Assembly: GCF_056712565.1 (NCBI RefSeq)
Contig: NZ_CM160072.1
Length of the DNA stretch: 64,000 bases
Direction: 5' to 3' (one strand)
Part shown: positions 10,242 through 11,022 of the stretch, in pieces
How positions within the stretch are numbered: position 1 is the stretch's first letter
How the letters are laid out: every line of letters begins with the position of its first letter
Translations under genes and position numbers: made by a program
The notes under the pieces: generated by a model
The model's database searches: none
What the model was told of the DNA's origin: nothing
Seen by the model: the letters and a program-made list of their open reading frames with translations, nothing else

Positions 10242-10550
10242 TTACTGGCGGCGATGTCGCCAGTGCAGCCATAGCGCCACTACTGCAAAAATGAGGCAGC
10301 CTACTAAAAACGGGATCAGCCCAAAAATGGTGCCGACACCTAAACCAATTTCCACCCGTGGGCGACCTGTTTCCTGGACCTGCATTAAACGCTCATAGAC
10401 GCCGGGCGCATGCACTAGCAGGTTCAGCAATTGCGCCCCAGCCCAAAAGCAAAACAGCACAAACAACGCATAGGCAATATTGCCAGGCGTTGAAGATGCA
10501 TTGCGATATTTTCCGCTAAACAGCGATTTTGACAGGGTGAAATCAGCCAT
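10242..10550 (-). CDS. yaiY: small inner-membrane protein YaiY
   Basis: 102-aa ORF with two hydrophobic segments. Confidence 0.85.
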
Positions 10551-10809
10551 AAAAACCTCCGGAAGTCATCTGCTTCTCTTCTGGTGTGATACCAGCGGCT
10601 TATGGCAAGTCTGACAGGTCATTTCGATTGTCAATATCAGAATCATGGTAAATTGATGTTGGGAATATTCCCGAAGCGTGAATCTTCGTTGTGAGTCACA
10701 AAATAGCAACCTTAAGTTAAATTTATTAACAATTGCGAAAGTGTTGTCTACACCACAGACAGTTGTTACAGAATATGCAAGGATGTTGTTTTTCGTTAAC
10801 GGAGCTGCC

Positions 10810-11022
10810 ATGAATCTGCCTGTAAAAATCCGCCGTGACTGGCACTACTATGCGTTCGCCATTGGCCTTATATTCATTCTTAATGGCGTGGTGGGGTTAC
10901 TGGGATTTGAAGCAAAAGGTTGGCAGACCTATGCCGTCGGTCTGGTGACGTGGGTGATTAGTTTCTGGCTGGCGGGGTTGATTATTCGTCGTCGCGATGA
11001 AGAAACTGAAAACGCCCAATAA
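10810..11022 (+). CDS. yaiZ: small membrane protein YaiZ
   Basis: ATG at 10810 (MNLPVKIRRDWHYYAFAIGLIFILNGVVGL..., 70 aa) preceded by GGAG; ORF-track start 10678 rejected. Confidence 0.8.
   Translation: MNLPVKIRRDWHYYAFAIGLIFILNGVVGLLGFEAKGWQTYAVGLVTWVISFWLAGLIIRRRDEETENAQ

Follow-up and report, generated by a model that had tools for sequence, protein, structure and literature searches.

The yaiY and yaiZ genes lie back to back in the window, the stretch of 64,000 nucleotides from contig NZ_CM160072.1 (RefSeq assembly GCF_056712565.1) that was analysed here as a whole. In its list of open reading frames, yaiY encodes 102 amino acids and yaiZ 70 amino acids, and the spacer between them covers positions 10551-10809, exactly 259 bp (Table 1). 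The initial annotation had placed this divergent pair, with its 259-bp spacer, between yaiW and ddlA, and the coordinates agree to the base; RefSeq gives the order sbmA, yaiW, yaiY (-), yaiZ (+), ddlA (-), iraP and phoA, and at these positions labels yaiY a YaiY family protein and yaiZ a DUF2754 domain-containing protein. The RefSeq names and the Pfam matches described below also agree with the gene identities given there. The 951 bp around the pair show 100% identity to E. coli ATCC 11775, NU14 and similar strains, and 5422 of 5426 complete E. coli genomes contain this stretch.

Two other features were seen nearby. A pseudogene, frameshifted and annotated in RefSeq as a hypothetical protein, lies in the ddlA-iraP spacer of this strain type (window ~12218-12420; 5069-5271 of locus L001), and a REP-like palindrome, GCCAGAT...ATCTGGC, stands between the stop codons of yaiW and yaiY (window 10200-10266). 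The latter has a sub-threshold match to Rfam naRNA4 (32 bits; gathering score 59.5). Because this naRNA4/REP match is the sole one when 10100-11150 is scanned with Rfam at E<=1, and is both sub-threshold and outside the spacer, the scan gives no known sRNA or riboswitch.

Table 1. Features of the yaiY-yaiZ locus in window coordinates
Feature	Position	Strand	Basis
yaiY coding sequence	10242..10550	-	ORF, PF10954, RefSeq, dN/dS, hydropathy, AF2 model, alignment
yaiY ribosome-binding site, CCGGAGG	10556..10562	-	conservation in 80 species
Second sigma-70-like yaiY candidate, TTGACA (10634-10629)-15-TGtCAGACT (10616-10608)	10608..10634	-	PWM, conservation
Predicted promoter-like element, TTGTCA-15-TGgTAAATT	10628..10654	+	PWM, conservation
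Predicted extended -10 of the Rcs-dependent yaiY promoter, TGaTATTGA	10631..10639	-	conservation, rprA spacing
RcsB-box-like pseudo-palindrome TGGGAATATTCCCG, core GGAATATTCC (10662-10671), putative operator	10660..10673	.	consensus, conservation, position
Proximal yaiZ promoter region	10744..10789	+	mapped starts, conserved blocks
yaiZ ribosome-binding site, GGAG	10801..10804	+	conservation in 80 species
yaiZ coding sequence	10810..11022	+	ORF, PF10953, dN/dS, AF2 model, membrane localisation (PMC3225971)
Hairpin, intrinsic terminator of convergent ddlA, overlapping the yaiZ stop	11010..11040	-	terminator scan

The arrangement is kept well beyond E. coli. In each of the 80 fetched loci that include upstream sequence, yaiZ has yaiY as its divergent neighbour within the order sbmA-yaiW-yaiY<>yaiZ-ddlA, with a spacer of 221-284 bp. 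Cedecea, Buttiauxella, Cronobacter and Raoultella retain the core order yaiW-yaiY<>yaiZ-ddlA, also when sbmA has been relocated. Phylogenetic co-occurrence, which had been proposed as a check on the pair, is found in 84 of the 84 yaiZ loci with upstream sequence. Each family is very small, and neither extends beyond Enterobacteriaceae: among 5.8 billion proteins there are 251 YaiY and 224 YaiZ clusters, all with Enterobacteriaceae names, a YaiY profile matches 62 representatives among 1.84 billion, and yaiZ is present in 155 of 100,044 species genomes. The coupling of the two genes is not absolute, because two distant lineages have yaiY without yaiZ. In these lineages (loci L087 and L088), yaiZ is not detectable, YaiY shares 34% and 30% identity with E. 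coli YaiY, and yaiY is flanked by ddlA on one side and by yaiW or sbmA on the other, with spacers of 355 bp (L087 3146-3500) and 230 bp (L088 70-299).

Two families of small membrane proteins

YaiY matches the Pfam family PF10954 (DUF2755) with 165.7 bits (cut-off 25; E=2.9e-49), its residues 1-101 covering profile positions 1-100 of 100, and YaiZ matches PF10953 (DUF2754) with 164.6 bits (cut-off 25.8; E=6e-49), residues 1-70 covering all 70 profile positions. Both are full-length, high-scoring members and are themselves the founding E. coli proteins of these families. In comparisons with orthologues of other genera, made at a synonymous divergence of ~1.6-2, yaiY has a dN/dS of 0.054 and yaiZ one of 0.045, indistinguishable from 0.049 and 0.053 for the neighbouring yaiW and ddlA; yaiY and yaiZ are real genes under purifying selection.

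Hydropathy windows mark residues 24-48 and 65-99 of YaiY and residues 12-36 and 40-60 of YaiZ, and in each protein positive charges flank both ends of the hydrophobic stretches. The AF2 models place helices at 21-47, 49-58 and 66-101 in YaiY (mean pLDDT 64) and at 5-30 and 38-69 in YaiZ (pLDDT 74). Each protein is accordingly modelled, with moderate confidence, as a two-helix inner-membrane protein forming a helical hairpin. Published work found YaiZ-GFP to be membrane-localised, YidC-independent and of C-in topology by LacZ and PhoA fusions (PMC3225971). The two transmembrane helices expected of the families are found in YaiY, of ~100 amino acids, and in YaiZ with its C-terminus in the cytoplasm. 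The initial annotation had described both products as short, hydrophobic, conserved in position and of no assigned function, with topology prediction as a check. This description stands: each has two hydrophobic segments, a full-length Pfam match and low dN/dS, hydropathy and AF2 both give two helices in YaiY and in YaiZ, and PF10954 and PF10953 are both DUFs without a solved structure. The search for solved structures related to YaiY or YaiZ likewise found none, and hhalign, used to look for homology between the two proteins, returned a probability of 0.2%, indicating unrelated families.

Conservation in YaiY is highest in the inter-helix loop, HAPGVYE.LMQ.Q..RP, in which H47, P49, G50, E53, L55-Q57, R63 and P64 stand out, and in YaiZ it is highest in the invariant N-terminal RRDWHYYA. 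A longer, GTG-initiated open reading frame of 114 amino acids (10678-11022) overlaps yaiZ. It was rejected as the yaiZ gene because the conserved sequence begins with the ATG at 10810 and transcription was mapped to start sites downstream of the GTG; the 70-amino-acid form is the real one. Extended yaiZ versions of 90, 103, 110 and 114 amino acids occur in public protein sets.

Conserved elements and promoter candidates of the spacer

The spacer was aligned over 80 species, to which four more genera were then added. Both ribosome-binding sites are conserved in at least 95% across the 80 species. The alignment also contains a conserved block AGTCTGACAG (10608-10617), a near-invariant 27-nt block TTGTCAATATCAGAATnATGGTAAtTT (10628-10654) and a conserved pseudo-palindrome RGA-N4-TCY (GGGAATATTCCC, 10661-10672), and from 10608 to ~10680 no indel was found in any species aligned. 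Farther towards yaiZ, TCACAA (10696-10701) is conserved in at least 80% across the 80 species, and the blocks on the yaiZ side are CCACAGAC (10753-10760) and TG-n-GAkGAT (10776-10784), the latter followed by a T-run. A strict sigma-70 scan returned 0 sites, the candidates having 15-nt spacers or no -35, and therefore a PWM of our own was used together with conservation. Among other signals inspected, sigma-54 and FliA promoters were rejected for wrong spacings. A perfect 11-bp palindrome, TGTGAgTCACA (window 10690-10702), carries CRP-like half-sites, the right one being part of TCACAA; as a CRP site it was rejected for its N1 spacing instead of N6. A direct repeat CTTAAG-N5-TTTATT (window 10711-10727) resembles the PmrA/BasR box, YTTAAK-N5-YTTAAK, and may be due to chance because it is weakly conserved and lies in an AT-rich stretch.

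The pseudo-palindrome resembles the box of the RcsB homodimer, whose consensus is TN(G/A)GAN4TC(T/C)NA (PMC7913699). It agrees with 7 of the 8 defined consensus positions, and its outer T/A are mostly C/G across species. In 64 of the 80 species the half-sites RGA-N4-TCY stand at an identical distance from the near-invariant block while the 4 central nucleotides vary, and such fixed half-sites around a variable centre are, at the level of the alignment, the signature of a site for a dimeric regulator. The short core motif is common by chance, with 17 occurrences in the window against 38 expected, so the case for RcsB is built on conservation and position instead of the consensus match. The literature examined yielded no RcsB footprint or ChIP signal for 10660-10673, and yaiY is absent from the main text of the Salmonella RcsB-box paper (PMC7913699). 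Taken together, we regard 10660-10673 as most likely a predicted operator to which RcsB would bind directly. Five central bases (GGAATGTATCC, for example) or a degenerate box are seen in Salmonella diarizonae/arizonae (L070, L071) and Kosakonia (L027, L028, L032). A palindrome of this kind is expected to be a weaker RcsB site, and Rcs control may have been lost in a lineage-specific manner in these genomes.

The predicted extended -10 of yaiY consists of TATTGA (10636-10631, minus strand) preceded by TG, within the near-invariant block. Measured from the box centre at 10666.5, this -10 is at 30.5 nt, the same distance as in rprA, and from the rprA spacing the yaiY +1 is predicted at ~10624. 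In the two lineages without yaiZ, an element TCTGATATTGAC is retained 19-20 nt from the box, there CCAGGAnnATTCCG, upstream of yaiY. Because box and element are kept where yaiZ is missing, the module belongs to yaiY. The second sigma-70-like candidate on the minus strand has a predicted +1 at ~10601; its -10 was placed by the PWM in 77 of the 80 species, with a spacer of fixed length and free sequence, and its role may be that of a basal promoter or of a conserved 5'-UTR element. No experimental yaiY start within the spacer was found among the published start-site data examined, and the Cappable-seq, ROSE and Shigella start-site papers hold no entry for the yaiY-yaiZ locus. The yaiY start on record in the part of the PMC3415461 supplement that covers the locus lies 465 nt upstream, antisense to yaiZ, with 2 reads from unstressed cells; it appears as a weak minus-strand start at ~11015.

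For yaiZ, the same part of that supplement (Kim et al. 2012; MG1655) places the starts at 21 nt (4 reads) and 29 nt (2 reads) before the ATG, corresponding to window positions ~10789 and ~10781. These fit the elements TGcAAGGAT (10776-84) and CAGAAT (10769-74) together with a -35 region formed by TTGTCT (10744-49) and CCACAGAC (10753-60). The mapped starts are ~110-130 bp from the RcsB-like box and ~165 bp from the predicted yaiY start, that is, away from the place where an operator shared by both genes would have them. At the other end of the gene, yaiZ is without an obvious terminator of its own, because the T-run of the hairpin at its stop codon is on the ddlA strand only. The ExcludonFinder table for E. 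coli lists yaiW-yaiY and yaiZ-ddlA as convergent excludons and contains no divergent overlap of yaiY and yaiZ 5'-UTRs, each gene name appearing a single time in that paper (PMC12288877).

The same conserved core can be read in another way, as a reciprocal switch in which RcsB activates yaiY and blocks a distal yaiZ transcript, so that the genes are coupled negatively. The core at 10628-10673 (45 bp) could hold two back-to-back extended -10 promoters around one -35 palindrome, ATTGTCAAT, within which the plus-strand -35 TTGTCA overlaps the minus-strand TTGACA; since both promoters share this single palindrome, RNA polymerase would occupy only one at a time. The plus-strand element has the best PWM score of the spacer (12.9) and is found in 79 of the 80 species, the 'n' of TGn being variable, and its predicted +1 at ~10661 falls inside the RcsB box, which would then span +1 to +12. 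RcsB boxes downstream of starts or in 5' UTRs have been proposed to act as roadblocks (PMC7913699), and the two lineages without yaiZ lack the TGnTAAtTT part. However, this co-occurrence comes from two lineages only, the 15-nt spacer of the element is short, and the conservation of 10628-10654 could serve yaiY instead, lying as it does between box and -10. Moreover, the PMC3415461 supplement shows no start near 10661 in the part where the proximal yaiZ starts appear, and no decrease of yaiZ on Rcs activation was found in the expression reports examined. We therefore consider the switch unlikely; if it were true, a single RcsB dimer at 10660-10673 would be activator for yaiY (at -49 to -36) and roadblock for the distal yaiZ transcript together, and envelope stress would redirect transcription away from yaiZ and towards yaiY.

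Expression of the two genes and the question of co-regulation

In published qRT-PCR, yaiY rises 17.9-fold on RcsB overproduction and 16.3-fold on overproduction of sigma-E (PMC2731931). It increases by log2 3.9-5.2 with colicin M, where it is listed among the Rcs genes (PMC3599342), and 37- and 50-fold with a LolCDE inhibitor (PMC5105897), a compound that also triggers the Cpx and sigma-S responses. Neither the RcsB-overproduction list nor the colicin M tables contain yaiZ, and in the ranking of all genes by fold change with the LolCDE inhibitor yaiZ is absent from the rows down to 1.254-fold; in the covered part of the same data yaiW shows a modest 3.2- to 4.0-fold rise. Since the tables are truncated, the missing entry for yaiZ counts as indirect evidence. 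Elsewhere, yaiZ is listed as an OxyS target.

These data bear directly on the view that the spacer is one bidirectional control region, that the two genes are co-regulated and that their proteins possibly work together. It is true that the divergent adjacency is strictly conserved (all 80 loci and the four further genera, with spacers of the stated range), that both products are small inner-membrane proteins, and that a palindromic operator could in principle act in both directions. However, yaiY is induced 18- to 50-fold where yaiZ goes unreported, in the rows of the ranking down to 1.25-fold; yaiZ has separate, proximal starts ~165 bp from the yaiY module; the regulators differ, being OxyS for yaiZ and RcsB and sigma-E for yaiY; and distant lineages carry yaiY without yaiZ. 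Co-regulation, which the initial annotation had deduced from the divergent arrangement, is thus very improbable, and the shared control region that it described parses into two promoter modules, of which that of yaiY is kept in lineages without yaiZ. The transcriptome check that it proposed came out in two ways: yaiY is expressed under envelope stress, but the same lists hold no parallel response of yaiZ. Independent regulation, named there as the finding that would speak against it, is largely what is seen for the Rcs input, the one that is well documented, under envelope-stress conditions; the two genes may still vary together under others.

Another explanation is that the palindrome is bound by a regulator other than RcsB, or that the Rcs and sigma-E induction of yaiY is indirect. 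In its favor are the effect of sigma-E overproduction on yaiY, the presence in the invariant block of TCTGA, a sigma-E -10-like pentamer, and the extended palindrome CCAGGA-N4-TCCTGG, which departs from the RcsB consensus at the outer positions. A sigma-E promoter for yaiY was nevertheless rejected: TCTGA is there, but no GGAACTT-like -35 stands at 15-17 nt from it, and positions 10656-10660, where it would fall, show no conservation (alignment, with the spacing set by hand); the sigma-E effect on yaiY is taken as indirect for these two reasons. As for RcsB itself, the GA-N4-TC core and its geometry equal those of rprA, and yaiY behaves like the core Rcs genes in three independent datasets (PMC2731931, PMC3599342, PMC5105897). 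We consider another regulator or an indirect Rcs effect decidedly unlikely.

The reading that we prefer, and hold to be reasonably probable, is that of separate promoter modules, an RcsB-dependent one for yaiY and a proximal promoter of its own for yaiZ. The genes yaiY and yaiZ are unrelated and kept back to back in a conserved, envelope-related block, yaiW-yaiY<>yaiZ-ddlA, and on this model the 259-bp spacer would consist of two promoter modules instead of one shared control region. The yaiY module would occupy ~10600-10675, with the RcsB-type palindrome immediately upstream of the extended -10. Once the Rcs phosphorelay is activated, RcsB in its phosphorylated form would bind at about -49 to -36 and recruit RNA polymerase, as at rprA and osmCp1, and yaiY would behave as a strongly inducible envelope-stress gene with its start predicted at ~10624. 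Transcription of yaiZ begins at the proximal promoter, 21 and 29 nt from the ATG, and does not respond to Rcs. The data show that the genes are real and conserved, and they show the synteny, the conserved motifs, the yaiZ starts, the yaiY induction and that no yaiZ induction is reported; that RcsB binds directly, where exactly yaiY starts and what YaiY and YaiZ do biochemically are the parts of the model that we infer.

As to these roles, published phenotypes of the pair are weak or irreproducible: a yaiZ transposon insertion altered fim-lux in CFT073, a read-through phenotype of delta-yaiY was not reproducible, and machine-learning associations with AMR have been published. From its Rcs induction and its conserved place beside ddlA and yaiW, an outer-membrane lipoprotein gene, YaiY is probably an envelope-stress membrane factor that would act through its conserved inter-helix loop. 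For YaiZ, a constitutive membrane protein is the probable reading.

Earlier work had already established the two genes with their Pfam families and arrangement, as well as the response of yaiY to Rcs; what is mildly new is how the spacer divides and that it probably contains a direct RcsB site. Because there are two separate promoters and only yaiY responds to Rcs, the finding is real but ordinary. Its useful outcome is a correction, namely that divergent adjacency at this locus does not mean co-regulation. If the RcsB site is confirmed, yaiY would belong directly to the Rcs envelope-stress regulon and be a compact reporter for it, and the site would offer an entry point to the role of the conserved YaiY beside yaiW and ddlA.

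Likeness to known Rcs-controlled promoters

The rprA promoter has a 14-nt box, TGAGACGAATCTGA, at -49 to -36 of its annotated 5' end and the -10 TACTAT. The first base of the -10 stands 30.5 nt from the box centre in rprA as well as in yaiY, where the predicted -10 is TGaTATTGA. The two differ in that the rprA box has 8 of 8 consensus positions and a known start, whereas the yaiY box has 7 of 8 and a predicted start, and in that the yaiY -10 is without the usual T at -7. A second likeness, to the roadblock in the flhDC 5' UTR, would hold if the plus-strand promoter were real, as the box would then lie at about +1 to +12; repression is experimentally established for flhDC, whereas the distal yaiZ promoter is predicted from sequence.

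The closest parallel in arrangement is the bdm-osmC pair, two small divergent genes with the RcsB-type boxes TAAGATTAGTCCTG and CGGAATATCCTG in their MG1655 spacer, of which the osmC box closely resembles that of yaiY. Both bdm and osmC are induced by Rcs, each from its own box. The yaiY-yaiZ pair differs from bdm-osmC in having one box, and only yaiY responds.
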